The position numbers were made by a program, and so were the translations under genes. This document shows positions 6,138-27,134 of a stretch of 64,000 nt of DNA, in pieces (the stretch's first letter is position 1; each line of letters begins with the position of its first letter). The notes beneath the pieces were generated by a model. It saw only the letters and a list, made by a program, of their open reading frames with translations, did no database searches and was not told the origin of the DNA. This DNA is from Candidatus Goldiibacteriota bacterium. Lineage in GTDB: Bacteria > Oederibacteriota > PGYV01 > DSYL01. The DNA lies in the NCBI GenBank assembly GCA_018000835.1, contig JAGNJD010000001.1:137889-201888 (forward strand), written 5' to 3'.

Positions 6138-7424
6138 TTATATATTTTTTTTATTTAAAATTTCAATAAAAAGTTCGGTAATTTCCGGGTCAAACTGTTT
6201 TCCTTTATTTGCCCGTAATTCATAAATCGCTTCTTCCATGGATAATGCGTCTTTAAATTCTCTTTTCGTCGTCATTGCATCAAAGGCATCAGTTATTGCC
6301 AGAATTTTTGCCTCAAGACTTATCTGATTTCCTCTTAACCCCTGTGGATAACCAAGTCCATCATATCTTTCGTGATGTTGCAAAATAATCGGGATAACAT
6401 CCTGAAGTTGTTTGATGTTTTTTAGAATTTTTATGCTGTTTTCCGGATGTTTCTGGATTTTTATGAGTTCGTCAGGCGTCAGGACATCCTTTTTTGACAA
6501 AATGTCTTTTTCTATCCCAACGTTACCCAGATCTTTTAAAATTGATGCGATTCTTAAATTTTCTATCTGCTGGGGTTTTAAATTTAATTTTTTCGCTATT
6601 TCAACGGAATACTGGGAGACCCTTTTGGCGTGGCCCGGTGCATATTTATCCGTCAAATCAAGCGTAATCATAAAGGCATTTAAAATACCTTCGTAATAAT
6701 CGTCCAGTTTATCGGTCATATCGTTAAAACTATTTGCAAGAATACGAAATTCATTTTTAACGTTTACTTTTATTTTATGTTTTAAGTTACCTGAGGATAT
6801 TATTTCCGTCCCTTTTATTAATTCAAATAACGGAGAAGTAATTTTGTTGGTAATAATAAATATTAATAAAGTAGCAAAAAATATCAAAACAATTGCAATT
6901 ATCCCGCTTTTTACGTAAATGCTTATTATTTCATTTTCAATTTTTGACTTATCAAACCCGAGATGAATGTGACCTAAAACAATTTTTTCATTTTTTAATT
7001 GAATTTCTATCGGAGTAACGATGTTTTTTACGTATGTTTCCGTCCCGTCTCTTTTGAAATAAACATTATCGTTATTATTTATAATTTCAGGAAACATTGT
7101 TTTCAGATTTTTACCAAGGTCTGCAGTGTTATTGCTTGAAAAAATTATATACTCTTTATCGGTAATAAATAAATATGCAATTTCCGGTGTCTCCATTACT
7201 TTTTTTATATATATGGAAAGGGAAATCTGGTCTTTACCGAGAATTGATTCCGCAGAAACGCCAAGAAGATATTTGTTTATCAGATTGGATTTTTCTTCTA
7301 AATTATTTAACAAAAGTTTTTTTGTATCGTTAACAATTAAAAACGTAGTAGAGGAAACGGTTACTATGACTATCAGTATTACGCTAATGATAAACTGGGT
7401 TTTTATCTTCAAAATCCCCTCCAA
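6138..7424 (-). CDS. HD-GYP domain protein (putative c-di-GMP phosphodiesterase) with N-terminal TM/periplasmic sensor and HAMP.
   Basis: Contains HHERYDGLGYPQGL (the HD-GYP signature) and an HD motif (HAKRVSQYSVEIA). Has two TM segments flanking a ~150-aa extracytoplasmic region and a HAMP-like linker. Confidence 0.8.
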   Translation of the reverse strand: MEGILKIKTQFIISVILIVIVTVSSTTFLIVNDTKKLLLNNLEEKSNLINKYLLGVSAESILGKDQISLSIYIKKVMETPEIAYLFITDKEYIIFSSNNTADLGKNLKTMFPEIINNNDNVYFKRDGTETYVKNIVTPIEIQLKNEKIVLGHIHLGFDKSKIENEIISIYVKSGIIAIVLIFFATLLIFIITNKITSPLFELIKGTEIISSGNLKHKIKVNVKNEFRILANSFNDMTDKLDDYYEGILNAFMITLDLTDKYAPGHAKRVSQYSVEIAKKLNLKPQQIENLRIASILKDLGNVGIEKDILSKKDVLTPDELIKIQKHPENSIKILKNIKQLQDVIPIILQHHERYDGLGYPQGLRGNQISLEAKILAITDAFDAMTTKREFKDALSMEEAIYELRANKGKQFDPEITELFIEILNKKNI

Positions 7425-7484
7425 CTATCTATAAAATTTTTCATAGTTTATCACAACCAATCCCTTTGTCAATACAATATGGGC

Positions 7485-7592
7485 GTGGAGTTTTCCCGTT
7501 TTTTTGTCTTTGTAGCCGCAGGCTTTATGCCTGCGTAAGCATCTGTTTTTTTTCTGATATTTATTATATTTTTAAAAACGGGAAAACTCCAC
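7485..7592. mobile_element. MITE-like 108-bp element with perfect 19-bp terminal inverted repeats (GTGGAGTTTTCCCGTTTTT / AAAAACGGGAAAACTCCAC).
   Basis: TIR copies lie at 7485-7503 and 7574-7592, with an internal GCAGGC/GCCTGC palindrome between them. This forms the left boundary of the larger TIR-bounded insertion. Confidence 0.5.
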
Positions 7593-7668
7593 TAAATATC
7601 ATATTGACATTTAATTTATATTGCGATTTGATAAAATTTGTCATACAAAGACATACTTGGGGTGACAA

Positions 7669-7857
7669 GTGAAAAACAGGGATAAAAGATTAAGCGTTAG
7701 AACAACAAAGAAAGTAGAAGAGTTGCTTAAAAGTACTTTAAAAAGAAAAGAATACAAATTCTACTCTAAATCCGATATAATCAACCTCGTTTTAGAAGAC
7801 ACCCTTCCAGGATATGCGGAAGGTAAGACAACCGCAGGTAAGAACAATGACAGATAA
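7669..7857 (+). CDS. Ribbon-helix-helix (Arc/MetJ/CopG-like) DNA-binding protein, candidate regulator of the adjacent R-M module.
   Basis: Has a beta-strand-like KRLSVRTTKK followed by two predicted helices (EELLKSTLKRKEY / KSDIINLVLED). Uses a GTG start with a GGGGTG SD-like sequence upstream. 62 aa. Confidence 0.45.
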   Translation: MKNRDKRLSVRTTKKVEELLKSTLKRKEYKFYSKSDIINLVLEDTLPGYAEGKTTAGKNNDR

Positions 7858-7881
7858 ATTTAATATGCTGGTTATTATACT

Positions 7882-9006
7882 ATGAAACCTTTAATTAAAT
7901 GGGCTGGTGGGAAATCAAGCGAAATTATACACGTAGAAGAAATGATACCTGAATTTAAGAAGTATATAGAACCATTTTTTGGTGGTGGTGCTCTATATTT
8001 TGATTTGGAACCTGACAACGCAGTAATTAACGATATCTCTGACGAACTAATTAGTTTTTATAAAATGATTAAGGACAGTTCTTTAAGGGAAGCGTTCAAA
8101 GAAGAATTGTATAAGTATGTTGAGGCGTGGGAAAAAATAGACGTGTATCTGGAAGAGTTTGGAGACGCAATACTTCAACAATATACAAAATACAAGAAAG
8201 ACGACATTGACATTGACGAACTTGAAAAAGCAATAGGTAAATTGTTTAAGAATAAAATCGTTCCTTTCAATGGACTGTTTAAGAAGGATTTTTGCATAGA
8301 CCAGTCCAGTTTACTTGAAAAAATGGAAACTAATTTAATTTCTAAATTGGAACGAACAAAGGAAAAAGTTAATAAGAAGAATAGTTTCTCGGACTCGGAA
8401 ATATCTAAAAATATTGAGTCGGCATTACGTAGTGGTTTATATATGCACTTCCGCAGTATCTTTAATGAAGCCAAAAAGAAAACAATTAGTATCATAAATG
8501 CAAAGAAAATTGCTAATTGGTATTTTATCAGAGAGTTCTGCTATGGCGGTATGTTCAGATTTAATAGTAAAGGCGAATTCAATGTCCCTTATGGTGGTAT
8601 AGCATATAACAAAAAGGATTTACGTTCAAAAGTTGATTATTTGTTCTCTGACGAAATTAAAAACCTTTTATCAAACTCTAAAATATATAGCAAAGATTTT
8701 GAAACGCTTTTTAAGGATATAAATCCTACAAAGAATGATTTTATATTCCTTGACCCACCTTACGACTCTGAATTCAGTGAATATGAAGAAAATGCTTTTA
8801 CAAAATATGACCAAGAACGTTTGGCGAAGTTATTATATACGTGTAAGGCACAGTGGATTCTTGTTATCAAGGAAACTCCATTTATCAAAGGTCTATATAC
8901 TGGACACAAAGGTATAAAAATAAAAAAGTTTAGTAAATCATATCTTTTTAATATCAAAGAAAGAAACGAAAGAAAAGTTCTACACTTGATAATTCATAAT
9001 CTATGA
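7882..9006 (+). CDS. Dam-family (D12 class, alpha-type) N6-adenine DNA methyltransferase.
   Basis: N-terminus KWAGGKSSEI...EPFFGGGALYF matches Dam motif X/I (KWAGGK, F-G-G). DPPY motif IV is present (FLDPPYDSEF). A ~120-aa insertion lies between them, probably the target-recognition domain. Confidence 0.85.
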   Translation: MKPLIKWAGGKSSEIIHVEEMIPEFKKYIEPFFGGGALYFDLEPDNAVINDISDELISFYKMIKDSSLREAFKEELYKYVEAWEKIDVYLEEFGDAILQQYTKYKKDDIDIDELEKAIGKLFKNKIVPFNGLFKKDFCIDQSSLLEKMETNLISKLERTKEKVNKKNSFSDSEISKNIESALRSGLYMHFRSIFNEAKKKTISIINAKKIANWYFIREFCYGGMFRFNSKGEFNVPYGGIAYNKKDLRSKVDYLFSDEIKNLLSNSKIYSKDFETLFKDINPTKNDFIFLDPPYDSEFSEYEENAFTKYDQERLAKLLYTCKAQWILVIKETPFIKGLYTGHKGIKIKKFSKSYLFNIKERNERKVLHLIIHNL

Positions 9007-9009
9007 GTA

Positions 9010-9741
9010 TCAGCGTCCTCTTTGATTTGCAATGATACTTTTTAATTGGTCAATCGTGAGCATAGGGTCTTTTTTATGAATAATACTATGGCAATTTGAA
9101 CATACTGGGACTACTTTTTTAAGTGCTTCATCTACCGATTGCTTCCTTCCAGTGCCATCAACAAGATGGATTGGTTCCGTGTGATGAATGACAATGAAAT
9201 CCTTACCCACGCCATCATATAAATCTTCAAAATTAAAACCACAAGCACAACATGCTATTGGGTTACCGCTTTGTTTTAATTGTCTAATTTTAAGTATGCG
9301 TAATTTCGTTGAACGTGCCCTTTGTTTTCTTGTTGTTTCCGTTACGTTGCCTTCTTCAATAACCAAATTTTTGTAATCGTTATCCATCTCGTCTTCTCTT
9401 TGTTTCGGAGAAAATCCTTGTGAGATTAAAGACATATATGTTCCATTGTTGTTTTGTAAAAACAATTGACCTTTTTTCGTTAACTTATATTTTTTAGTCC
9501 TATAACTATATGTTACAAGTCCGTTAGTAAAAATTCTTCTCCTCCGAAATTTCGTAAAGTTTCCAATACGCTGGTGAAGCATTATCTCGCCTTTGCGTTT
9601 TTTACTTCTTTGAGCAGAAGTGCCAGTAGGATTAAGACGTTGTAGAAGTGTAGTTTTAATAGAACTCATTGGTAGTCCAGAAGGATTTTCAGATAAAACC
9701 TTCATAAAAGGAATTTCCAAATCTTTTTCAAAATAATCCAT
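9010..9741 (-). CDS. HNH-family endonuclease, candidate restriction partner of the Dam-like methyltransferase.
   Basis: C-terminal C-x2-C...HH...C-x2-C-H arrangement (IACCACGF...VIHHTEPIHL...VPVCSNCHSIIHKK). It is convergent with the methyltransferase and only 3 bp away, tail-to-tail. Confidence 0.65.
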   Translation of the reverse strand: MDYFEKDLEIPFMKVLSENPSGLPMSSIKTTLLQRLNPTGTSAQRSKKRKGEIMLHQRIGNFTKFRRRRIFTNGLVTYSYRTKKYKLTKKGQLFLQNNNGTYMSLISQGFSPKQREDEMDNDYKNLVIEEGNVTETTRKQRARSTKLRILKIRQLKQSGNPIACCACGFNFEDLYDGVGKDFIVIHHTEPIHLVDGTGRKQSVDEALKKVVPVCSNCHSIIHKKDPMLTIDQLKSIIANQRGR

Positions 9742-9998
9742 TTTTGCCCTCCTATTAACCCAAGAATTATATTATCATTAAAACACACTTAATAATATAT
9801 ATAATACGGTGGCCCCGTTTGTCAAGACCGATTTTTCCAGAATTTAAGGTGGATACCAAGCTAACGGAAGCAACCTCCTTTCTCATCGGATTTTTGTAAC
9901 TTGACCGCCTGAAATTTCTCTCTAGGATGTCTTCTGTTGCGACTTCTTGAATCAGGTAAGGGGCCAGCACCCCGGACTTTTTCTCTAACTGCGGCATC

Positions 9999-10846
9999 TC
10001 AGGCAGCATTCTTTGCCTGCCTCTTGGCTTTGACTGCTGCGCCAAAATAAACTTCTGCCGGAGTACGATAATCAAGAGCCTGATGCAAGCGGATATTGTT
10101 ATGAATTTTGAAATACTTTTTAAGCCCGGACTCGTATTCAAACATTGTTTCGTACCCCTTTGGATAAACGTCATCATACTTTACACTCCGCCACAGCCTC
10201 TCTACAATGATGTTGTCGTGAGATCTGCCCTTACCATCCATGCTAATCTTTATCTTCTTGCCTTCAAGTATGTCAGTAAACGTTTTGTCCGTGAACTGAG
10301 AGCCCTGATCCGTGTTGAAATATTCCGGCTTGCCGTGTTTGTCAAGCGATTCCAGCAAAGCTGCCTTGCAGAAACTGCTGTCGAGGCTGTAAGACAAAAC
10401 ATACCTGCTGTGCCAGTCCACTATCGCCACAAGATACGCATATCCACGCCTAAGGCGTATGTACGTAATATCTGCTGCCCAAACCACGTTAGAACGCTTT
10501 ATTTTCAACCCTTTTAGCAGATACGGGTACTTCTTGTGCACCTTATTCGGAATACTTAGCCTTTTTTTCGGGCATATTGCCTCTATTCCCATGATTTTCA
10601 TCATACTGCAGGTTTTTTGCGTCCTATTTTTATCCCGTGCAGTTTATACAACGCCTTGGATATCTTTCTGGCTCCGTAGAACGGGCATTCTGTGTATATT
10701 TCGTCTATCCTGTCAAGGATCACTTTATCTAACTCTTTCATCGGCCGTTTTTCATAGTACAGCACCGATTTACATACTCCCAGCAGTTTGCATTGCCTGC
10801 TTATGCTGAAATTCTTGTCGTATGGGTCAACAAACATCCTCCTCAC
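9999..10846 (-). pseudogene. IS3-family transposase OrfB (integrase/rve core), split by a 1-nt frameshift in an A6/T6 run.
   Basis: Two ORFs are in different frames: 10601-10846 (MRRMFVDPYDKNFSISRQCKLLGV...HGIKIGRKKPAV*) and 9999-10604 (MMKIMGIEAICPKKR...DDE core). Inserting one A in the homopolymer (plus strand 10613-10618) restores ...GRKKTCSMMKIMGIEAI... Confidence 0.6.
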
Positions 10847-11130
10847 AACAGGTTCAACTTTTTTAAATTTTTTTTTAACCAGTTTATCTCCAGATCCTTC
10901 TCGCCGATCAGCCTCAGATACTCATCTTCTCGCGATTCCCGTTCTTTTTCTTCCTTGTTGTTCGGTTTCGCAAACAAACTCGCTGCGTTCAGAAGTAAAT
11001 GTTTCTTCCATTCCGTCACTTTATTCGGATGAACTCCGTATTTCGCCGCAACCTCGCTGATTCTTACGCCTTCCCGTGATGCTTCAAGTGCTACCTTTGC
11101 CTTAAAACTCTCCTCATAACGTTTTCACAT
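10843..11130 (-). pseudogene. IS3-family transposase OrfA; the initiator ATG is followed directly by an in-frame TGA.
   Basis: Minus-strand translation after the stop reads KRYEESFKAKVALEASREGVRISEVAAKYGVHPNKVTEWKKHL...LKKNLKKLNLL*, typical of IS3 OrfA. An AGGAGG RBS precedes ATG-TGA at 11130-11125, so codon 2 is a stop. Confidence 0.55.
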
Positions 11131-11692: not shown

Positions 11693-11992
11693 ATTCCTGG
11701 ATACTTCTTATATCTTTATATCGCGCGTCGCCTGTATCCCATATATCATCTGCCTAAAAAATTTCTTCCTTGGCATTGTTAATACTTTGCTTATCTCTAT
11801 TATGAATTTTTCAATTCGCTCTTTTATTTCTTCCAAAATTTTGCTATTATTTTCATCGGGATTCCTCCTTTTGGGGAAAACTCTTTTCCCTCTTTTTTTC
11901 GTTAAAAACAGTATACAAAATTGGAATCCCTTTTTTAATCCTTATTTTTGTTTTCTTCTTATTTGATAAGCCTTTTCTGGATTTTGAATTAA

Positions 11993-12011
11993 AAAAACGG
12001 GAAAACTCCAC
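11993..12011. repeat. Solo copy of the 19-bp TIR (AAAAACGGGAAAACTCCAC), the right boundary of the 4.5-kb insertion.
   Basis: Exact match to the TIRs at 7485-7503 and 7574-7592. It is followed by G plus ATATGGGC (12013-12020), identical to the 8 bp at 7477-7484. Confidence 0.6.
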
Positions 12012-12279
12012 GATATGGGCTTACAATCTTTACTTAAAATCATTACCATCTGGTAAACTTACCATTTTATGTATGTCCAATCAATAAATTGCATAAAAGC
12101 ATATAATTTAAAAAGAGATTGTCTAAAATTTATATTTTTTTACCAAACAGTAGCATCTCGTCTTAGAATAGACAAAAATTCCAGTTTAGTATAAAAATAT
12201 TAATTCTTTTATTAAATTTAACAAAAATAATTGAAACCGTGTCCCCGATAATAAAACTCATATTCATTTAATAAAAAAA

Positions 12280-16687: not shown

Positions 16688-17299
16688 TTAATTTTTTTCA
16701 GTATCCGAATCTTTTTTTTCTTCTTTTTCACAGGCGACTTTTACCATAGCCGGCCTTATTATTCTATTATCCAGTAAATATCCTTTTTGATATACTTCAA
16801 GTATCTCCCCTTCTGATTTGCCTTCAACGTATTCTTTATGCAGTGCATGGTGAAAGTCTGGATTAAAAATTCCTTTCGTTTCTATTTCCTTTACTCCCAT
16901 TTCTTTTAAAGTATCTTTAAATTGCTTAATAATCATTTCAATCCCTGCTTTTAACGAATTTACGTCTGTTGCGGTTTCTAACGATGCAAATGCTCTTTCA
17001 AGATTGTCAAAAATTGGAAGAAAAATACTTATTACTTCATTCTTTGTATTTTTTTCAAATTCCTGTTTTTCCTTTGCAACTCTTTTTCGGTAATTATCTA
17101 ATTCGGCTAATGCACGTAAATATTTGTCGGTTAATTCATAAATCTTTTTATCTTTTTCGGCAATAATTTCATCATATTTTTTCTGTTCTTGTACAATTTT
17201 TTCGTCAATCTTTTCCCCTGCTTCATTTTTTTCTTTACTTTTATCTGTGGTACCATTTTCCTGCTCTTTCTTTTGTTCATTTTTCATTTCTTTTTCCAT
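16688..17299 (-). CDS. grpE: Nucleotide exchange factor GrpE.
   Basis: Coiled-coil N-terminus; DNYRKRVAKEKQE; the C-terminal GrpE beta-domain motifs match. Confidence 0.85.
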   Translation of the reverse strand: MEKEMKNEQKKEQENGTTDKSKEKNEAGEKIDEKIVQEQKKYDEIIAEKDKKIYELTDKYLRALAELDNYRKRVAKEKQEFEKNTKNEVISIFLPIFDNLERAFASLETATDVNSLKAGIEMIIKQFKDTLKEMGVKEIETKGIFNPDFHHALHKEYVEGKSEGEILEVYQKGYLLDNRIIRPAMVKVACEKEEKKDSDTEKN

Positions 17300-17917
17300 G
17301 ATGTACTCCTTATAAATTTTTATATTATTTATTATAACAGAAAAATCAATAGTATGATTATTATTTTTAAGCCTACAAATGACTATAAGATTATTTTTTC
17401 ATATAATTTAGTTTTAATAATAATTAAATGTTATCTAAAATTTTTATTATTATAACATATTAAAATAAAAATTTAAATATTTTTTTAAAAATTTTATGAT
17501 TGGGGCAAATTGCAGGTTTTATTGCACCACACCCAAAATTTCACATGTTTTTTGTAAGAAAACAACTTGTTATATTATTGGATGTTTTATAGTTTAATAT
17601 TACTCTGGGATAACTATTTATCCAATTTTGTATTGCCTATTGCCCTCACTGTCTTTCTCGTTATTTTCCCTATATCTGTTATAAACCTTCTTATCATCCG
17701 GTTCTGGTTCTCGTTCATTCCTTTTTCATATGTTTTTGCAGATTAAACGCCTTCAACAAGATAAATGGAAAAATCCTATGCCTATACTCAATGGCAAATA
17801 TACGATATGAATCAATTGTTCAATGTTAAATTCTTTGGTTCGGAAACACAACATTGTTGACAGGTGTCGACGACGACATAAATTAACGTTTTATTTTTCA
17901 TTAAATTCCATTTATTA

Positions 17918-20200
17918 TTATTTGGTAAGCAATTCAACCTCTACCCGCTTTCCTGCTTTTTGAATTGTTTCCCTGCTTACCCCTTCAATTAAATTGCCGT
18001 CACCATAACTGGTCAAATAAATATTTTCAGGATTTATTTTTCTTACAGTGGTCAAATAATCATAAACTGCCTTGACTCTTTTTATAGATAATTCAAGATT
18101 TTTTTCCGGTTCTTCAAAATCACTTGCATAACCTTTTAATATTAAAAAATAATTTTTTGCGTATTTTGATACTGCTTCTGCTGCTTGATTTAAATACGCA
18201 TATTCATCAACAGGTATTTCAAATGATTTTTCTTCAAAATCAATTGCAGCAAGAATTAATTGAATGCCTATACCTTCAAAATCCGGGGCTTTTGTCTGTA
18301 TTATATAATCAGTTTCTATTTCTATTCCGTTTATTTGTTCAATGTTTATTTTTATGAAATATAAACTTCCTTTTCTTACGTATTCATTTTTTTCATTTGT
18401 CCCATCCCAGGATACAATGTAATTTATTGAACTCAAATTTTTCAATGTCTTTATTAAATTTTTATTATCATCAAAAATAATAATGTCAAATTTTTTAATT
18501 TTATTGGCATCTTTTTTATTGGATAAAAAATTAACTTTTTCTTTTCCTACATTCAGCATTCTTTTATCCGGAGTCAGATTAAAATTCGAGACAAATGTAT
18601 CAATAGTGACGTTTTCAATTTGTTCAAATACGTTTCCGGCAAAATCATTAGCCGAAAGTTTAATTTGATAGTTACCGTCAGCCACTACGTTTCCAAGTGC
18701 ATCATCACCATTCCAATATGTTTTATCCGTAATTCCTTCTCCCGAAATTTTTCTGATTACGTTATTTTTATTGTTAAATATGCTTATATTCCACGTATTT
18801 ATGTCTTTGTCTTTAAAATCCATATTTATTTGTAATTTATTGAATTTACTATTTTTTACGGGTGCGAATATCTTTGGATAAATACTTAATTTAAATAACG
18901 GTGGCGTTGTATCGACGGTTATGACTCTTTTTTTCTCCCAGATTGTTTTCTCATTAACAAAAAAACTGTACTTTATAGTATAATCACCATCCTTAACATT
19001 TTTCCCGTCATTGTCTTTTCCGTCCCATATTATCTTTGGTTGGATTACTTCAATGCCTTTAATTTCTTTCACTACTTTTTCATCCTTATCAGTTATTATT
19101 ATTTCCCATTTGCATCCGGGTATTTTTAACGGGCTGTTTCGTAAAATTAATTCTGTAGTATCGTATATATCGTCGTTATTTGGTGAAATATATTTATATG
19201 AAAGGCTGAATTCCATACTTTTTAGCGTTTGATTTAACAATTCAATGTCGGTCGTTTTAATTTCCTGAATTATTTCTTTTTTATGTTCTTTCCTCGTTTC
19301 TTCTCCTATAAAATACGTAAAATCCAATTTATGGGTTTGTCCCTGATTGTTAAATCCTGGAATAAAAACATAATTCAATGTAAATTCTTTTCTTTTGTAT
19401 GAAAGACCAAATGAAAGATTAAAATTTTCCATATATAACAATCCGGTTCTAAATCCAACGTCACCAAATTTATTGTTTAAAAAATATTTTTCTCCGCCAA
19501 GAGAAAATCCTGTTCTAAAAATTTTATTTTCATAATCTACGTTCGTAATTACAAGGTCAAATGCAGCAATGCCTGTATTATCAAATAAAAAACTTGCACC
19601 GGCTTTATAACTTACGGGTATTTTTTCAATAATGCCATTTGTCCATTTAATTCTTGCGTCAAGATCCGTGGCAACTAATGAAAATCTCATTTTTTTATCA
19701 AGAAAATCCGGATAAAAGATAAAACCCGCGTCAAATGCAGTTGTAAAACCATTGAATTCATAGTTTGCCATTGTAAAATTTAGTAATTTTAAATTAATTC
19801 CAAACGACGTGTATCTTTGTTCATGTAAAAATGTGGCAAATGACAAGTATACGAAATCATTAATAAAATTTGAATCAGTATATAATGTTTTAAGATATGA
19901 AACAGAAACCGTCATATCTGAAAATAGCGGTTGTATGTAATTTATTCCATATAAATTTTGTTTTCCTGAAAAGGCACTATCAAAAAAAATACTTGCATTT
20001 ATCTGATTTATATTAACAAGACCTGCGGGATTCCAGAAAAAAGATGAATAATCATCTGCAACCGAAGTAAATGCGCCACCCATTCCGGATGCTCTTGCTC
20101 CAATCGATTTAAAAATGTCGTCTTTTATTTCATTTGATATCAAATTTCTTTCTATGATTAAAAAAATAAAAACAAGAATAATTTTATAAATTTTTTTCAT
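17918..20200 (-). CDS. Large outer-membrane protein with Ig/FlgD-like repeats and a C-terminal OmpA-like domain.
   Basis: Signal peptide present. The N-terminal half is rich in beta-strand-forming aromatic and alternating residues. Repeats of the W(D/N)GxDxxGNxVxDGxY type occur. The C-terminus has the OmpA-like pattern (ILKGYASD...ELSIKRVKAVYDYL). Confidence 0.55.
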   Translation of the reverse strand: MKKIYKIILVFIFLIIERNLISNEIKDDIFKSIGARASGMGGAFTSVADDYSSFFWNPAGLVNINQINASIFFDSAFSGKQNLYGINYIQPLFSDMTVSVSYLKTLYTDSNFINDFVYLSFATFLHEQRYTSFGINLKLLNFTMANYEFNGFTTAFDAGFIFYPDFLDKKMRFSLVATDLDARIKWTNGIIEKIPVSYKAGASFLFDNTGIAAFDLVITNVDYENKIFRTGFSLGGEKYFLNNKFGDVGFRTGLLYMENFNLSFGLSYKRKEFTLNYVFIPGFNNQGQTHKLDFTYFIGEETRKEHKKEIIQEIKTTDIELLNQTLKSMEFSLSYKYISPNNDDIYDTTELILRNSPLKIPGCKWEIIITDKDEKVVKEIKGIEVIQPKIIWDGKDNDGKNVKDGDYTIKYSFFVNEKTIWEKKRVITVDTTPPLFKLSIYPKIFAPVKNSKFNKLQINMDFKDKDINTWNISIFNNKNNVIRKISGEGITDKTYWNGDDALGNVVADGNYQIKLSANDFAGNVFEQIENVTIDTFVSNFNLTPDKRMLNVGKEKVNFLSNKKDANKIKKFDIIIFDDNKNLIKTLKNLSSINYIVSWDGTNEKNEYVRKGSLYFIKINIEQINGIEIETDYIIQTKAPDFEGIGIQLILAAIDFEEKSFEIPVDEYAYLNQAAEAVSKYAKNYFLILKGYASDFEEPEKNLELSIKRVKAVYDYLTTVRKINPENIYLTSYGDGNLIEGVSRETIQKAGKRVEVELLTK

Positions 20201-20264
20201 ATTGCCCTCGTTTAAAACCTTTTTTACATTTTAAAACAAACTTAAAATTATTTCAATTTTTTTG

Positions 20265-21365
20265 TTAAATATCTTTAACTTTTCCTTTATCAACAAGAAA
20301 ATATTTGTCAATCTTTATATTTTTTACGTTCTCTTTATTTGTGGTTGTTATTATTATCTGTTTAAAAATATTGAACATTTCACTTATAAAATATTTGTTT
20401 GCTTCATCCAGTTCAGAAGTAAAGTCATCAAGTAATACAATAGGATATACATTTATTTTTTCTTTAATATAAATACCCTCTGCGAGTTTCAATATTATAC
20501 ACGATAATCTTTGTTGTCCTTCTGATCCAAAATATTTTAAAGATTTATTATTTAATAAAATCTCAATATCATCCCTATGAGGACCAATTAATGTTGATGT
20601 TCTATAAACTTCTTCATTAAAATATTTTTCAAAAAATGCTTCAAAATATCTATTTATTTCTATTTGTTCAATATTATCAAAGTTTTTTTGTTTATATTTT
20701 AATTTAATTACTATGTTTTTCTTAGTAAAATTATTATTTATTATTTCATTAATCCTTTCTATTGCATTTATTCTTTTATTAATTATTATTTCAGAATAAT
20801 TCTTTAATTGTAGGTTCCATATATCTATATCTTTTTTATTTGATCTATGTTCTTTTATTGATTTTAGTACATAATTTCTTTGGCAAACTATTTTATTATA
20901 TTTAGTTATTAGCATATAATATTCTTTATCAGTACTAATTAATATATTATCTATAAATTTTCTTCTTAGCAATGGTTCTCCGCTGATCATATAAATATGT
21001 TCTGGAGAAAAAAGGACTAATGGTATTTTTCCTATTAAATCAGATAATTTTCTTATATGTTTATTATTTTCAGTAATAATCCTTCTATTTGTTACATTAT
21101 TATATTCAATTTTAAAATTTTTGTTTATACCGTTTGTGTATTCCTGAACAACTTCTATCCTAAAATAATTGTTATTTTCATTTACTAAATATTTATCATT
21201 ACTACACCTAAATGATTTTCCTGTTGAGATATAGTAAATTGCTTCAATAATATTTGTTTTGCCAGAACTATTTTCCCCATGAAATAGATTAGTATCTTTA
21301 TTTAAGTCAATTGATAAATAATTATAGTTCCTAAAATTTTCTAATTTTATCTTTGAAATATACAA
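20265..21365 (-). CDS. recF: DNA replication and repair protein RecF.
   Basis: MYISKIKLENFRNY...FHGENSSGKTNIIEAIYY (Walker A). Also carries the ABC signature SEGQQR and Walker B LLDDFTSELD. Confidence 0.85.
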   Translation of the reverse strand: MYISKIKLENFRNYNYLSIDLNKDTNLFHGENSSGKTNIIEAIYYISTGKSFRCSNDKYLVNENNNYFRIEVVQEYTNGINKNFKIEYNNVTNRRIITENNKHIRKLSDLIGKIPLVLFSPEHIYMISGEPLLRRKFIDNILISTDKEYYMLITKYNKIVCQRNYVLKSIKEHRSNKKDIDIWNLQLKNYSEIIINKRINAIERINEIINNNFTKKNIVIKLKYKQKNFDNIEQIEINRYFEAFFEKYFNEEVYRTSTLIGPHRDDIEILLNNKSLKYFGSEGQQRLSCIILKLAEGIYIKEKINVYPIVLLDDFTSELDEANKYFISEMFNIFKQIIITTTNKENVKNIKIDKYFLVDKGKVKDI

Positions 21366-21465
21366 ACCTATCTCCTTTTATTTGTTCCACGTAGAACAAT
21401 CATTATTAGTATTTCACAATTTGTTCTATGTAGAACATTTTACTTTTCCACAATTATAATAAAAC

Positions 21466-22176
21466 TCACGAATGTGTTTTTCCTAATTTTTTATAGTTTC
21501 TTGGGTATTCATCCGGTGTTTTCCACATCTTTCTAACATAAAAAATGTAAAATAAAATATCATTTATTCTGTAATCAAAGATATTATAATCATTGCAACC
21601 AAATATTTTTATATTATTAAAATTTCTTTTTATCATTTTTAATGTGTTTTTTGACGCAAAATAAAAAATATATCCATCTATCTTTGTAAATGGAAAGGAT
21701 ACTTCCATTGCAATCTCAAAATTTGCAAGTGCTCTGGTTATTACACAATCAAATTTTTCTCTATATTCTGAATTATGAGCTAAGTTCTCACATCTATTAT
21801 TAATAACAGATATATTATCTAATTTTAAGTTATTTTTAATAATATTTAAAAAAAATGACTTTTTTTCATTTGATTCAATTAGTAATACTTTCTTTTTAGA
21901 AATTATTGCCAGTGGTATTCCAGGGAAACCAGCACCAGAACCAATATCCAATATTGTTTCGCATTGTGAAATTGTGTCTATTTTTAATAAATGTAATGAA
22001 TCAATAATATGTCTTTCAATTAATTTATCAACATTTATATCAGATGTTAATTTAAGTAATGAATTATATTTAAGTATTAACGTTATGTAATCGGATATTT
22101 GATTAACTTTTTTTTTATCAATATTTTTAAAATCATATTTATTTAGCATTGAAATTATTCTTTCACATATATTCAT
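21466..22176 (-). CDS. rsmG: 16S rRNA (guanine527-N7)-methyltransferase RsmG (GidB).
   Basis: LLKLTSDINVDKLIERHIIDSLHLL and ILDIGSGAGFPGIPLAI are characteristic GidB motifs; 236 aa. Confidence 0.85.
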   Translation of the reverse strand: MNICERIISMLNKYDFKNIDKKKVNQISDYITLILKYNSLLKLTSDINVDKLIERHIIDSLHLLKIDTISQCETILDIGSGAGFPGIPLAIISKKKVLLIESNEKKSFFLNIIKNNLKLDNISVINNRCENLAHNSEYREKFDCVITRALANFEIAMEVSFPFTKIDGYIFYFASKNTLKMIKRNFNNIKIFGCNDYNIFDYRINDILFYIFYVRKMWKTPDEYPRNYKKLGKTHS

Positions 22177-22250
22177 ATTTACATTATTACAGGAAATTTA
22201 TTATAAAACAATAATAATTTTATATATCAAACAATTTTATTTTATAATAG

Positions 22251-22439
22251 TGGGCCCCCCTCGGGCTAAAGCCAGAGGCTCCCCACAAAAAATTCAATCA
22301 ATTTGTTCCGTAGAAATTTTCTTTACTGGATTTGTTGATTGACCAGGGGACGAGGAATACCGGTTATATTCCCCAGCGAATTTGGAACTATCCTGGCAAA
22401 GTAGATAAAATATTTTTAATGTGTGTGTTCATAAAATAT
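22251..22439 (+). repeat. Intergenic repeat family A, copy 2 (~189 bp); candidate small RNA gene.
   Basis: Near-identical to 12823-13008. A TATAAT -10 hexamer at 22243-22248 sits ~7 nt upstream of the conserved block. A CCCCAAA...TTTGGGG hairpin plus TTTTCT at 22459-22484 sits just downstream. Confidence 0.5.
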
Positions 22440-22458
22440 TTCACTGAGATATTTTATT

Positions 22459-22484
22459 CCCCAAACTGAAATTTGGGGTTTTCT
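22459..22484 (+). terminator. Hairpin CCCCAAACTGAAATTTGGGG followed by TTTTCT; putative intrinsic terminator for a + strand transcript from repeat A copy 2.
   Basis: 7-bp perfect stem, 6-nt loop, U-rich tail. Confidence 0.45.
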
Positions 22485-22490
22485 GAATGA

Positions 22491-22605
22491 TGTTACAATA
22501 AGTAAAAAGAAATATGAGAAAGATATGCATTACTTTGAGGTATGGAAATAACGGAAAATAAAGGGTGTTTGCGACAGCCATACAAAACAGGTAAATAAAA
22601 ACTTG
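22491..22605. repeat. Intergenic repeat family B, copy 1 (~115 bp).
   Basis: Shares the blocks CAATAAGT...GATATGCATTAC...GGAAATAA..GGTGTTTGCG...GCCA.ACA...CAGGTAAA..AAAACTTG with 53945-54058. Confidence 0.45.
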
Positions 22606-22802
22606 TCTTTATTTTGCTTTCAACTGCCATCCGGCACAAGCCATTTGCTGTTTGTTATCAAATCTTTTTATTAAAATAATCTGGTTGTAATGTTTTTCAT
22701 AGGTTTTTAAATGTTATTATAATAAAATATTAAAATTATATTATATTTAAATTTTTGTATATAAAAGATTTTCTTAATTGATTTATTTTAAATGGTAAAT
22801 TA

Positions 22803-24455
22803 TTACCATGAAGTTACTTTTGATTTTTTAGGACCTTTTTTAATCAGTTTTTCAAAAATATTTTTGGGTTTTGGTGTAGGTGATGGAGTTGGTTCCGGCG
22901 TTGGAGTATCTATTGCTTCTGTTTCCGGTGTATTTAAATCATTAATTATTTTGTTTTCTTCTGCTTTTATTAATTTAATTAATATTTCCGCGCGTCTGTT
23001 TGTATACATGTTTTCCGGTGTATCGTTTGGCATAAGAGGTTGCTTGTCAGCATAACCTTCAATTGAAACTCTTTGTTCATTAATACCACTTTTTATTAAA
23101 TATTTACGAACTTCATTTGCTCTATCCAATGATAATTCATAATTAGATGGATATTTTATTGTATGAATTGGTACATTATCGGTATGTCCTTTTATGACAA
23201 TAGGGGATTCATATTTTTTTAAAATTATCAACATTTCATCTAAAATTGGATAAAATTCCTGTTTTATGCTTGCAGCACCAGAGTCAAAATGAATTACAGG
23301 ATAAAATAGTAAATTATCGCCTTGTTTGACTAATTTTACCGATAACTCATTCACGTCATACCGGGAAGGAATTGTTGAAATAACAGGTTCTTGAATTTCT
23401 TCTGTTATTTCCTGAGTTTCAAATATTAAAGGTTCTTCTATTTTTTCCGTTTTTACTTCTTTATTCAATATTATTGGAGTAATTTGTGGTTCAGCCAGAA
23501 TTCTGTAAAGCCAGCTTGGTGAATAACCGCCATCACTTGTAACTTTATTTTTACCTGAACCATCTGCATTCATAATCCATATTTCCGGTTGATATTTATC
23601 AAGAACAAAGTTTGTATATACTATTTTATCATTGCTATGTGAAAACTTTGGGGAGAAACTTTTACCATCATAAGTAATCTGGTCTATTTTCTTACTATCT
23701 AAATTCATAATTAAAATATCAATGTTTTCACCATAATTTAATGCAAATGTTATTTTTTTACCATCATTTGAAAAATCAGGTGAGATTACTTTTTTATCTT
23801 TGTAATTAGTTAATTTTTCTTCATTTGCCATATTTATGTCTTTAATGTATAAATTATATGCATCCATTGATTCAATTTTAACATATACGATTTTATTATC
23901 TTTTGATAAAGATGGTGAAATACAATTATTTGAAAATGTCAATGATTCCTGATTAAAACCATCCTTTGTTATCCTCCATATGTTTTTGTTTCTTGAATAA
24001 ATTATATATGATTCATCGTAACTCCATGCAGGAGTATTGTTTATTTTGAAATTCTGTATGTCGCCTTCAATTTTATCTTCGTCAAAAGTTAATTGTATTG
24101 ATTTATTATTATGTAAATCAGCCAACCATAAATTATAATATTCGTTTTTCTGCACCCAATAAGTTATATACCACCCGGATGGCGATACAGAAGGAAACCA
24201 TTTTGAATTATTATCCTGAAATAATAATTCCTTTCCACTTCCATCTGTATTAATCCAGTAAAGATTTCCATTATAGGTATAAACTATTTTTTCCATGCTT
24301 GGAACAGGAGTATTTGTAGGGGTAGGGGTAGGAGGTGGTGTTTCCTTTTTATTTTTACAATTAGTCAGACTAATCAACGACAAACATAACAAAAAAATAA
24401 TAACTATGGTATGAAATGATTTGTCTTTATTATTCATTATTATTTCTGCTTTCAT
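22803..24455 (-). CDS. Lipoprotein with TolB-like beta-propeller (PD40 repeats) fused to a C-terminal OmpA/Pal-like peptidoglycan-binding domain.
   Basis: Signal peptide with lipobox (LISLTNC), then Pro/Thr-rich linkers. Has repeated ...DG..I.F.S.R.GN..I..... motifs. The C-terminus reads NEVRKYLIKSGINEQRVSIEGYADKQP...NRRAEILI (OmpA_C-like). Confidence 0.6.
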   Translation of the reverse strand: MKAEIIMNNKDKSFHTIVIIFLLCLSLISLTNCKNKKETPPPTPTPTNTPVPSMEKIVYTYNGNLYWINTDGSGKELLFQDNNSKWFPSVSPSGWYITYWVQKNEYYNLWLADLHNNKSIQLTFDEDKIEGDIQNFKINNTPAWSYDESYIIYSRNKNIWRITKDGFNQESLTFSNNCISPSLSKDNKIVYVKIESMDAYNLYIKDINMANEEKLTNYKDKKVISPDFSNDGKKITFALNYGENIDILIMNLDSKKIDQITYDGKSFSPKFSHSNDKIVYTNFVLDKYQPEIWIMNADGSGKNKVTSDGGYSPSWLYRILAEPQITPIILNKEVKTEKIEEPLIFETQEITEEIQEPVISTIPSRYDVNELSVKLVKQGDNLLFYPVIHFDSGAASIKQEFYPILDEMLIILKKYESPIVIKGHTDNVPIHTIKYPSNYELSLDRANEVRKYLIKSGINEQRVSIEGYADKQPLMPNDTPENMYTNRRAEILIKLIKAEENKIINDLNTPETEAIDTPTPEPTPSPTPKPKNIFEKLIKKGPKKSKVTSW

Positions 24456-25479
24456 TTAATTCATTAATATTTGTAATTTCTGCTATGATTGGATAATATG
24501 CATTAAAATAATATGTTAAACGATGCTTTTTTAAATTATTTATATTAATAACAAAAATATCGTTATTTTCAACGAATAACAATGTCTGACTATCTAACCA
24601 GAAAGGGAATTCACCGAAATTTTTTGTTATTTGTTTTATGTTTTTACCGTTTTCATTCATTATATAAATGTTATAATCATTGTAAATATATGCAATTAGA
24701 TTGTTTTCTGCCCTATTATTGTCAAATTTTGACCATGTAATTTCATTATTTAAATTATTAATGTTTAAAATTATTTGATAGTTTGTGCCGTCATAATTAA
24801 TTCTGGATATACCTCTGTTTTCCAGAAAAACTATTTTATTATTAAGTCCCCAGTCAAAAACAGGATTAAAAATATTACTTTCGGTTAACTGAATTAAACC
24901 AGACGTATCATAATTCATTGTCCATAAACTGTTATGAAATTTTGTTTTTTCCCTTGAAAACAGCCATTTTTTTCCATCGGGTGACAGCTTAAAAGATGTT
25001 ACGTCATTAGTTTTTGTTATATATGACTGCGAATTGCCGTTTTTGTCAATTTTGCAAATATTGTTATTTCTTAAAAAGTATATTTCTTCAGCATCAGAAT
25101 TCCATGAAATCTGCCCTCTGTTTTTCAGATCAATTTTATTAATGTTCTCTTTATCAAAAGTAATCTGGGTTTGTTGAGAACCATTGGTATTCATTATAAA
25201 TAAATTTACATAATTACTTCTGTCAGAATAGAAAGTTACTTTATTTCCATCCGGTGAAACAGCAGGACACCAATTATTGCCTTTATTTGTCAAAATCTTT
25301 TTATTTTCACCATTTATATCCATCATTCCAATCTGATACAAACCATTTTTATCTTCCAAAATAAAATATATCTTTTTATAAGTTTCTTTTACCGTCTTTT
25401 CCGGTTCCTGGGAATAAATTAAAGAAAAATTAAACATTAAAATTAATAATGTAAGAATTTTAAGTGATGTTTTTTTCAT
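24430..25479 (-). CDS. TolB-like periplasmic beta-propeller protein.
   Basis: Signal peptide, then PD40-type repeats (SPDGNKVTFYSDRS, LSPDGKKWLFSRE...). Confidence 0.55.
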   Translation of the reverse strand: MKKTSLKILTLLILMFNFSLIYSQEPEKTVKETYKKIYFILEDKNGLYQIGMMDINGENKKILTNKGNNWCPAVSPDGNKVTFYSDRSNYVNLFIMNTNGSQQTQITFDKENINKIDLKNRGQISWNSDAEEIYFLRNNNICKIDKNGNSQSYITKTNDVTSFKLSPDGKKWLFSREKTKFHNSLWTMNYDTSGLIQLTESNIFNPVFDWGLNNKIVFLENRGISRINYDGTNYQIILNINNLNNEITWSKFDNNRAENNLIAYIYNDYNIYIMNENGKNIKQITKNFGEFPFWLDSQTLLFVENNDIFVININNLKKHRLTYYFNAYYPIIAEITNINELNESRNNNE

Positions 25480-25575
25480 CTAAACCTCAATTATCTATTT
25501 TTTATATATTATATAGTTTTAGGTATGGTGTCAAGGATTTTTTGGTATAATATATAATAAAATTGCCAAATTTAA

Positions 25576-26613
25576 TTATTTAATCAGCATAACGTCACCA
25601 TACGAATAAAATTTGTAACGTTTTTTTATTGCTTCATCATAACATCTTTTTATGTTTTGAATGCCGCCAAATGCACAAACAAGAATATATAGTGAACTTT
25701 TCGGTAAATGAAAATTAGTAATTAAATAATCTGAAACACTGAATTTAAAACCAGGATATATGTATAAAGATGTAGATTCCATGGTTGACGAAACCATACC
25801 ATTTTTATTGGCACTTTCAATGGCACGTAAAGAAGTTGTTCCGCATGCAATTATTTTATTATTTGCTTTCTTTGCTTTATTTATTATTTTACCAGTAACT
25901 GGTGGTATGTAGTATTGTTCAGTATGTATTTTATAATTTCTTATATCAACCGTGTCAACAGGATTAAAAGTTCCTAAACCGATGTGTAACGTTATTTCAG
26001 TTATTTTAATGCCATTATTTTGTAATTTTTCCAATAATTCTTTCGTGAAATGTAAACCAGCGGTTGGAGCAGCCTTTGAACCCGGAATTTTTGCATAAAT
26101 TGTCTGATATCTTAACCTGTGAATCGGATCCAGATTATTTTTTTTTATATAGGGTGGGATTGGCATTACCCCAATTTTCCATAAAATATTAATTAAATCG
26201 TTATATGATAAGTTAAACTCAACAATTACTTCTTTCCCGATTTTCCCGATTATTTTTAAATTTACATCATTATTTATTATTATCACGTCATTTTCTTTTA
26301 CCCGGCGCGAATTTTTTACCAATACATTCCATCTTTTTTCATCAATATTTTTAAGCAATAAAATTTCAATTTTTGCATTTGTATCTGCTTTTTTACCAAA
26401 AATTCTTGCAGGGATTACCTGAGTATTGTTTAAAACCAGAACATCATCTTTATTAAAATATTTATAAACATTATAAAAAAAATCATGGGATATTTTACCG
26501 GAACTTCTGTCAAATACGAGAAGTCGTGAATTATCTCTTTTTTTTATTGGTTCCAGTGCAATTAATTCTTTTGGTAAATAATAATCATAATTTTCAATGT
26601 CATAAATATTCAT
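25576..26613 (-). CDS. queA: S-adenosylmethionine:tRNA ribosyltransferase-isomerase.
   Basis: MNIYDIENYDYYLPKELIALEPIKKRDNSRLLVF...VIPARIFGKK matches the QueA N-terminus, and ...TAGLHFT...CGTTSLRAIESA... are conserved QueA blocks. Confidence 0.85.
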   Translation of the reverse strand: MNIYDIENYDYYLPKELIALEPIKKRDNSRLLVFDRSSGKISHDFFYNVYKYFNKDDVLVLNNTQVIPARIFGKKADTNAKIEILLLKNIDEKRWNVLVKNSRRVKENDVIIINNDVNLKIIGKIGKEVIVEFNLSYNDLINILWKIGVMPIPPYIKKNNLDPIHRLRYQTIYAKIPGSKAAPTAGLHFTKELLEKLQNNGIKITEITLHIGLGTFNPVDTVDIRNYKIHTEQYYIPPVTGKIINKAKKANNKIIACGTTSLRAIESANKNGMVSSTMESTSLYIYPGFKFSVSDYLITNFHLPKSSLYILVCAFGGIQNIKRCYDEAIKKRYKFYSYGDVMLIK

Positions 26614-26930
26614 TTAAATCTGCCTTTTTGTTAAATTATATATAAAATAATCGTTTACTGCAAATTAAAATTATGATTATATTATAAACGGGCATAATGA
26701 AAATCAAAAAGTATTACCATTGGAAAATCCGGAATAATTATACCGGAACAAAAAGTATTTTTTAAAAACGGGAAAATAAAGAAGGAAATAATAAGAAAAA
26801 TTTACAAAAAATACATTAAATTTTAATTGACATATTTTTTTATTTTGATAATATTATATGTGCATAGAAAATATTATGCAATTTGTAGATTTTGTTCTAC
26901 AAGTAATTTTTTTCAGGAGGTAGTAGATTT

Positions 26931-27134
26931 ATGGCAACAGGAAAGGTGAAATGGTTCAATGAAAAGAAAGGTTATGGTTTCATTGAACAAGAAGGCGGTA
27001 AGGATGTTTTCGTTCATTACGAGGCTATTCAGATGGACGGTTTCAAGACGTTAAAAGAAGGCGAAACGGTTACATTTGACATAGTTGATGGAGCAAAAGG
27101 TCCTCAGGCATCAAATGTCCAGCGGCCGAAATAA
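26931..27134 (+). CDS. cspA: Cold-shock protein (CspA family).
   Basis: [30 protein letters not shown] carries the RNP1/RNP2 motifs; 67 aa; long 5' UTR after a TTGACA promoter near 26827. Confidence 0.9.

Follow-up and report, generated by a model that had tools for sequence, protein, structure and literature searches.

Restriction enzymes of Type IV, such as McrA, have by definition no cognate methylase. In restriction-modification (R-M) systems controlled by a C protein (PvuII, BamHI and Esp1396I), the C gene precedes the nuclease gene and its product is an Xre-type helix-turn-helix (HTH) protein. Among Type II enzymes only one catalytic class is more common than HNH, and MboI, which cuts GATC, is built on the PD-(D/E)XK framework (PMC4081073). 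Haloarchaeal proteins of 224–283 amino acids (aa) that join a winged helix (wH) to an HNH domain, as well as PUA-wH-HNH proteins such as HhiV4I, are Type IV enzymes that depend on Gm6ATC; the criterion for modification dependence was the lack of a neighbouring methylase, and 87% of cases had no methylase within three genes (PMC11037411). Here we analysed a 64,000-nucleotide (nt) stretch of DNA from a Candidatus Goldiibacteriota bacterium (contig JAGNJD010000001.1; hereafter, the window), in which a small open reading frame (ORF), a gene for a long-form Dam-family methylase and, facing the latter tail-to-tail, a gene for a predicted wH-HNH nuclease form a compact module. The sequences make it probable that this module is a Type II R-M system, in which the wH-HNH protein would be the cognate nuclease of the methylase and the site would most likely be GATC. 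A compact Type II system with a cognate HNH nuclease had been proposed in a preliminary description of the locus, and that proposal gains support from the gene linkage, the replacement of the nuclease in the same slot and the natural methylase-nuclease fusion set out below.

The methylase and its nuclease partners

The ORF listing of the window gave three ORFs of 62, 374 and 243 aa, at exactly the coordinates that the preliminary description had assigned to them (Table 1). The 374-aa protein is, by its sequence, unambiguously a Dam-family enzyme: it matched Pfam PF02086 MethyltransfD12 (2.7e-36; 126 bits, cutoff 22), NCBIfam TIGR00571 'dam' (180.1 bits; cutoff 114.85) and PADLOC MTase_II (2.1e-60), and its closest solved relatives, DpnM (2dpm; 6e-27), EcoDam and T4Dam, are all GATC enzymes. 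The Dam motifs that had been reported (KWAGGK, aa 6–11; FFGGG, aa 32–36; DPPY, aa 291–294) were all present, with the recognition region between FFGGG and DPPY as in the alpha-class order. Alignments to DpnM (2dpm) and EcoDam (2g1p) both jumped from about residue 67 to about residue 187 of the query, and the previously noted insert of about 120 aa (residues ~67–186) is therefore real. It lies after motif I and before the DNA-reading hairpin, contains conserved columns, and is conserved throughout a methylase subfamily of 373–404 aa, for which we found more than 120 clusters at >53% identity, the majority in archaea (DPANN and others) and some in bacteria. This insert had been noted to lie where a target-recognition domain would sit; it does enlarge the recognition region, although the DNA-reading hairpin of Dam is itself retained. 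In EcoDam, GATC is read by R124, Y119, L122, P134, K9 and Y138, of which K9 and Y138 read the first base pair (PMC4417163). Residues K9, Y119, L122, R124, P134 and Y138 of EcoDam correspond to K6, Y221, M224, R226, P236 and Y242 of the window methylase, all invariant in the subfamily, and six of the seven EcoDam contacts to GATC are conserved or conservatively replaced, the exception being N120, which is G222 here.

We then examined the company that this methylase keeps. The D12 methylase adjoined the HNH gene in every HNH-carrying locus examined. Five of five HNH-anchored contigs with close homologues (L001, L004, L007, L009/L010) carried a convergent D12 methylase gene of ~381–404 aa with overlapping 3' ends, and six of six genome loci retrieved by methylase alone carried a convergent, diverged HNH homologue (35–38% identity). 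A methylase-anchored set of 80 metagenome loci, retrieved with the methylase alignment, had an HNH gene in 19, a TdeIII-like PD-(D/E)XK nuclease gene (PF09520) in 62 and both in 10, giving 71 loci with at least one of the two nucleases beside the methylase. Seven of the nine loci with neither nuclease had too little flank, L066 carried a DpnI-like ORF of 139 aa, and L095 looked like an orphan. An orphan methylase in relatives, which had been named beforehand as an observation that would speak against a cognate pair, was thus suggested by L095 only.

In a tree of the methylases, the clade of the window separated from a sister clade. Within the window clade, the HNH gene was present in 16 of the 20 methylase-anchored loci with enough flank, nearly always convergent and with 3' ends that touch or overlap, and the remaining four (L017, L020, L024, L026) carried a TdeIII-like nuclease gene convergent at the methylase 3' end. 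In L017 and L024, this nuclease occupies the slot that is filled by the HNH gene in the sister loci L019 and L023. The TdeIII family (PF09520) is classed by Pfam as a Type II restriction endonuclease, and the interchange of unrelated nucleases beside one methylase is what one would expect if these are restriction enzymes that share a specificity. The association goes as far as fusion: on a 2.25-kb contig (P0162/L178), one 634-aa ORF joins a long-form D12 methylase (39% identity) to a wH-HNH protein (31%), both full length.

The carriers of the module comprise a Goldbacteria metagenome-assembled genome (MAG), DPANN archaea (Woese-, Pace- and Nanoarchaeota), Marsarchaeota and Methanosarcinales, and a more distant copy adjoins the integrase of a temperate Monoglobales phage. 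The phage locus L177 (Monoglobales phage CHVD 5762, PV036456.1, 2535–5282) consists of a Cro/C1 HTH gene, a gene for a 372-aa methylase and a convergent wH-HNH gene; an extra 223-aa ORF without a family match is inserted there between nuclease and methylase. Insertion sequence (IS) elements adjoin the module in the window, L001, L004 and L007. Judged from these sequences, the module is transferred horizontally, as one piece, among archaea, bacteria and phages, and both this spread and the neighbouring IS elements agree with the mobile-DNA setting that had been proposed for it.

Mobility of this kind also bears on a different role for the HNH protein, namely that of a selfish homing-type or nicking endonuclease that accompanies the methylase, or of a MutH-like nickase that discriminates strands together with Dam-type methylation. 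This would fit the common occurrence of free-standing HNH genes as mobile elements, the IS elements that often lie nearby and, in the sister clade, an HNH gene that varies in position and orientation and sometimes lies beside another nuclease gene. Still, we consider such a role very improbable: the methylase fusion and the slot-for-slot replacement by a TdeIII-family enzyme point to an equivalent restriction role, the avoidance of GATC in carriers (see below) fits restriction pressure and not repair or homing, and the carriers examined include small-genome DPANN archaea.

Some loci in the set carried further nuclease and methylase genes. In the sister clade (loci L031–L094, e.g., L054 and L093; ~50 loci), the gene order was TdeIII-like nuclease, long-form D12 methylase and N6_N4 methylase, the best solved matches of the last being N4-cytosine enzymes. 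The upstream neighbour in this clade had been considered as R.DpnII, and the Pfam scan gave RE_TdeIII (PF09520) instead. In L008 (1622–2833) and L066 (1829–2248), proteins of 139–143 aa that lie beside methylases matched the catalytic part of DpnI only (PF06044, 3.5e-07), the partner being a CcrM-like (GANTC-type) enzyme in L008 and a convergent long-form D12 methylase in L066. Such DpnI-fold nucleases, lacking a winged helix and paired with methylases, may be methylation-blocked derivatives. The gene order of L008 (D12 methylase, HNH gene, N6_N4 methylase and then the DpnI-like ORF) hinted at a DpnII/MboI-like cassette, which we rejected since the N6_N4 enzyme is CcrM-like (1.4e-89 to 6pbd; NF050803, 2e-113); by sequence, the CcrM-like methylase and the DpnI-like nuclease are most simply a second, separate R-M system.

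The nuclease and its candidate target site

The residues of the HNH motif given in the preliminary description (CxxC...HH...CxxCH) were invariant across 16 full-length homologues, as C164, C167, H186, H187, C214, N216, C217, H218 and H222. The catalytic His/Asn/His and the zinc Cys pairs follow in the correct order and align to the HNH domain of EcoKMcrA (6ghc), to which the family profile aligned with an E-value of 4.4e-4. Taken by itself, the window nuclease fell below every curated threshold in Pfam, NCBIfam and PADLOC (PF01844: 13 bits, E 0.12; cutoff 21.4), and PF01844 was matched by 16 of 16 family members (best 2e-06). The N-terminal region of about 150 aa, first described as being of unknown fold and as a possible specificity domain, is predicted to fold as a winged helix (aa ~1–108) followed by a linker, and its putative part in specificity stands. 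On the predicted model, the winged helix is the probable sequence reader, with a conserved Q57/N61 helix that has the sequence HQRIGN in the window protein and SQKVRN in distant family members. A profile search of 1.8 billion representatives returned 98 clusters at E<=1e-30, mostly near full length, and thousands more proteins with the HNH domain only, behind other N-terminal modules including EVE; it follows that the reader decides the target and that the HNH module is portable. The libraries searched held no characterised member of the wH-HNH family of the window, and the sole restriction label on its homologues was 'predicted HNH restriction endonuclease' (JGI).

Several observations count against a cognate Type II nuclease. 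Its HNH core is nearest to that of a Type IV enzyme, EcoKMcrA, its wH domain gave weak matches to Mrr_N, and all wH-HNH enzymes characterised so far are Type IV nucleases that require Gm6ATC (PMC11037411). The nuclease had no match to PADLOC REase_II or to any Pfam RE_* family, and the plasmid collection gave matches to the C-terminal HNH domain only and no full-length homologue. In addition, nine sister-clade loci carry both the HNH gene and a TdeIII-like nuclease gene, and two nucleases per methylase are unusual.

The first of these observations could mean that the wH-HNH protein is itself a Type IV, modification-dependent nuclease (akin to SruGXI/HhiV4I or to McrA/Mrr), and that the methylase is a separate partner of non-conflicting specificity, for instance a defence-island neighbour or an anti-restriction methylase. 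In architecture and length (243 aa) the protein does resemble the 224–283-aa enzymes that are toxic only in Dam+ Escherichia coli (PMC11037411), and in more distant relatives the HNH domain is joined to EVE, a reader of modified bases. Grouping with McrA-like nucleases had been named in advance as an argument against the Type II assignment; it holds to the letter for the core, yet it does not overturn that assignment because methyl-dependence in such enzymes sits in the reader domain, not in the HNH core. We find a Type IV nuclease quite unlikely here. The gene is linked almost obligatorily to one methylase subfamily, with convergent and overlapping 3' ends, and does not stand alone as the published criterion asks; a methylase-nuclease fusion exists; and a nuclease of the TdeIII family, of Type II by its Pfam class, replaces the HNH protein in the same slot. 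Moreover, the methylase keeps the GATC-reading residues of Dam, beside which a Gm6ATC-dependent nuclease would be lethal. PDB searches gave no sequence similarity to the wH domain of DpnI or to other solved readers, and tblastn of the phage collection, in which the presence of HHPV4 was not verified, gave no haloarchaeal-virus record.

For the preferred Type II assignment, the genomes that surround the module offer a view of the target site. Avoidance of words was assessed as observed/expected (O/E) counts under a maximal-order Markov expectation. Across the 140 kb of DNA that surround 18 HNH-only systems, GATC ranked first among the depleted 4-mers (119 vs. 379 expected; O/E 0.31; z −13.3), and the next palindrome was CTAG (z −6.8). 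The window itself has 33 GATC sites against 137 expected (O/E 0.24), with none in 7400–9800. By comparison, DNA around sister-clade systems had a GATC O/E of 0.77–0.86, and viral contigs that carry distant Dam homologues (524 kb) gave 0.81. The longer words GGATC, RGATCY, TGATCA and AGATCT were not depleted beyond GATC, which fits a plain 4-bp site. A CATG system of the NlaIII/iceA type was considered and rejected, as CATG is little depleted (O/E 0.73–0.79) and the methylase keeps the G-reading arginine of Dam.

With the retained Dam contacts and the avoidance of GATC as its basis, GATC is the site that we favour, with some reserve because lineage effects are possible, other palindromes are avoided and the sister clade shows no GATC avoidance. 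Part of the GATC depletion could stem from the lineage of the host or from other systems that target GATC, and in the window CTAG (O/E 0.15), AGCT (0.29), GTAC (0.34) and TCGA (0.40) are avoided as well. The palindromes that are avoided beside GATC suggest a lineage exposed to several restriction systems. A Type II system with a related or longer site, e.g., one that contains ATC or is interrupted, would accommodate the insertion of about 120 aa in the recognition region, which could modify specificity, the replacement of EcoDam N120 by G222, and the sister clade, which has the same invariant hairpin and yet hosts that are not depleted in GATC. In the flanks of that clade, GAATC was the most depleted 5-mer after AAAAA (O/E 0.65). 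A site other than plain GATC is nonetheless unlikely, given that around HNH-only systems no other word comes near GATC in depletion, that no GATC-containing 5- or 6-mer is depleted further, and that K6 and Y242, the counterparts of the first-base-pair readers K9 and Y138 in EcoDam, are retained.

The small upstream ORF and the genomic setting

The 62-aa ORF at the head of the module starts with GTG, behind a GGGGTG that resembles a Shine-Dalgarno sequence. It had been described as a ribbon-helix-helix (RHH) protein, an identity that we could not uphold: it had no Pfam, NCBIfam or PADLOC match and no RHH match at E<=1, a homologue search returned only the ORF itself, tblastn against the first 16 related loci gave nothing, and a single-sequence model showed two helices and no strand at low confidence (predicted local distance difference test, pLDDT, 61.6). 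Relatives carry an ORF of 50–97 aa directly 5' of the methylase gene, the stop codon of which usually overlaps the methylase start. These position-equivalent proteins are of several kinds. Sub-threshold RHH_3 matches were seen in L013 and L016 (0.0025 and 0.00097), and those of L011, L019 and L023 are RHH-like by sequence pattern alone; AbrB/MazE matches above threshold were found in L009 and L025, and L004 and L012 are AbrB-like by pattern; L001, L014 and L018 have a Zn-ribbon by sequence pattern; and the phage locus L177 has a Cro/C1 HTH protein (4e-18) in this position, also before the methylase. That non-homologous small proteins recur in one and the same place suggests a common function, in the simplest case control over transcription of the methylase operon. 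The controller role once assigned to the ORF is thus suggested by its position, held in relatives by unrelated small DNA-binding proteins, and goes no further than suggestion.

The methylase and nuclease genes are separated by a 3-nt gap in the window, vs. overlaps of ~9–18 nt between their 3' ends in relatives. A promoter/terminator scan gave no terminator-like site in this spacer; the scan was at chance level (13 vs. 10.8 expected), and we therefore draw no regulatory conclusion from it. The proteins of the module were 100% identical to entries of a Candidatus Goldbacteria MAG: KA120_00605 (hypothetical), a 'DNA adenine methylase' and KA120_00615.

To the left, the module is bordered by a sCache-HAMP-HD signalling gene. 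The IS3-family remnants to its right are a mobile-DNA context outside the R-M mechanism. They hold 5 of the 33 GATC sites of the window within ~700 nt (10222–10906), several-fold the average density, as if recently acquired from a lineage without GATC avoidance. The repeat CGTGGAGTTTTCCCGTTTTTTT occurs in three copies in the window, perfect over 19–22 nt (0.09 expected by chance). Copies 1 and 2 form a hairpin-like pair, 70 nt apart with a GC-rich stem inside, and copies 1 and 3 are inverted and flank a segment of ~4.5 kb that holds the R-M module, the IS3 remnants and a 166-aa ORF. Every copy lies ~140–185 nt 5' of a gene start in sense orientation, and the repeats could either delimit a mobile unit or act in regulation. 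Further along, a stretch of ~10 kb (17000–27000) has a G+C content of 0.22–0.29, compared with 0.30–0.43 elsewhere in the window, and may be another acquired island.

Table 1. Features of the module and its surroundings (positions in the window).
Feature	Position	Strand	Remarks
22-nt repeat CGTGGAGTTTTCCCGTTTTTTT	7484..7505	+	Inverted partners at 7574–7592 (−) and 11990–12012 (−)
62-aa ORF	7669..7857	+	GTG start; candidate small DNA-binding regulator
Long-form Dam-family (D12, alpha-class) N6-adenine DNA methyltransferase, 374 aa	7882..9006	+	PF02086, TIGR00571, PADLOC MTase_II
KWAGGK motif, aa 6–11	7897..7914	+	K6 pairs with EcoDam K9; invariant in subfamily alignment
Insertion of ~120 aa, aa 67–186, in target-recognition region	8080..8439	+	Relative to Dam/DpnM
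DNA-reading beta-hairpin region, aa 221–242	8542..8607	+	Aligned to EcoDam; invariant columns
DPPY catalytic motif IV, aa 291–294	8752..8763	+	Invariant in subfamily alignment
Spacer, 3 nt, between convergent stop codons	9007..9009		Methylase and nuclease genes tail-to-tail
Predicted wH-HNH nuclease gene, 243 aa	9010..9741	−	Convergent with methylase gene
C-terminal HNH (beta-beta-alpha-Me) domain, aa 160–243 plus stop	9010..9264	−	Two CxxC pairs
Helical linker, aa 109–159	9265..9417	−	Secondary structure of predicted model
Predicted N-terminal winged-helix domain, aa 1–108	9418..9741	−	Conserved Q57/N61 helix
IS3-family transposase remnants	9999..11019	−	Three ORFs: 58 aa; 81 aa (HTH_21); 201 aa (rve)

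Proposed mechanism and comparison with known systems

The observed domain identities, linkage, nuclease swap, fusion, retained Dam contacts and GATC avoidance are consistent with the following scheme. The methylase would methylate adenine in the target of the host, most probably GATC (to give Gm6ATC), and the convergent 243-aa protein would serve as the matching restriction endonuclease. In this protein, the N-terminal winged helix would read the unmethylated site through the conserved helix (HQRIGN/SQKVRN), and the zinc-stabilised C-terminal HNH domain would cut at or near that site, presumably as a dimer that cleaves both strands; methylation would block recognition by the nuclease. The product of the small upstream ORF probably binds DNA and regulates the methylase operon; the two convergent genes, which lack a terminator between them, may interfere with each other in transcription and, with the small ORF, balance the expression of both.

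Read in this way, the module belongs to an ordinary kind of system, Type II R-M, and its nuclease comes from an uncharacterised family. If confirmed, the nuclease would bring the HNH class into the set of restriction enzymes that cut GATC; an HNH enzyme acting at GATC could have a different cut geometry and may serve as a reagent. It would also offer a natural test case for how a winged helix discriminates between unmethylated and methylated GATC, because wH-HNH relatives with the opposite preference have just been described. With regard to the evolution of R-M systems, the nuclease (HNH, TdeIII-like or DpnI-like) and the small regulator (RHH-like, AbrB, Zn-ribbon or HTH) may be swapped freely around a conserved long-form Dam methylase, a modular picture in which the methylase is kept, the other two components are exchanged for unrelated folds and the cassette as a whole passes among DPANN archaea, bacteria and phages. 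For annotation, linkage to the methylase would justify naming hypothetical wH-HNH proteins as putative restriction endonucleases.

Among described systems, the DpnII/MboI type resembles the module in the family of the methylase (with DpnM as the best solved match), in the likely GATC site, in being a mobile cassette and in the proposed logic, by which methylated DNA is spared and unmethylated DNA is cut. The nuclease of that type has a PD-(D/E)XK fold, whereas that of the window module combines a winged helix with HNH; and DpnII-type cassettes have a second methylase, DpnA, whereas the window has no DpnA-type methylase and no DpnII-type nuclease. The module also differs by the ~120 additional aa in its methylase, by its convergent genes and by the small non-HTH ORF upstream. 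Compared with C-protein-controlled systems, a gene for a small putative DNA-binding protein likewise heads the module, and the phage relative L177 has a Cro/C1-type HTH protein in this place; however, the small ORF of the window precedes the methylase gene and not the nuclease gene, lacks an HTH, and is swapped in relatives for RHH-like, AbrB/MazE or Zn-ribbon proteins. Neither an operator nor a C-box was seen at the module, although no search was aimed at C-boxes.

Type II enzymes of the HNH class (KpnI, SphI, MboII and others; PMC4081073) have in common with the window nuclease a beta-beta-alpha-Me domain in a methylase-linked enzyme, but the latter has a separate wH reader in addition to its HNH domain, and PDB searches detected no sequence similarity to the solved Type II HNH enzymes. 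EcoKMcrA (6ghc) has the closest solved HNH core, with a common CxxC...HH...CxNCH pattern; its N-terminal domain is an unrelated reader of 5-methylcytosine (NEco; PMC11037411) in place of the winged helix. The wH-HNH Type IV enzymes of the SruGXI type, compared here by description, are similar in their two domains, in length (224–283 vs. 243 aa) and probably in the same 4-bp context. These enzymes need methylated GATC and mostly stand alone, whereas the family of the window nuclease is tied to a Dam-family methylase, and once fused with it, and should therefore be blocked by methylation. It is a tentative possibility that the window nuclease is the methylation-blocked mirror of the Gm6ATC-dependent wH-HNH enzymes, with the same scaffold and the same 4-bp word but the opposite methyl preference, and thus an HNH-class counterpart to the pair of DpnI and DpnII. 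If true, it would be the first GATC-cutting Type II enzyme of the HNH class relative to the libraries and literature searched.

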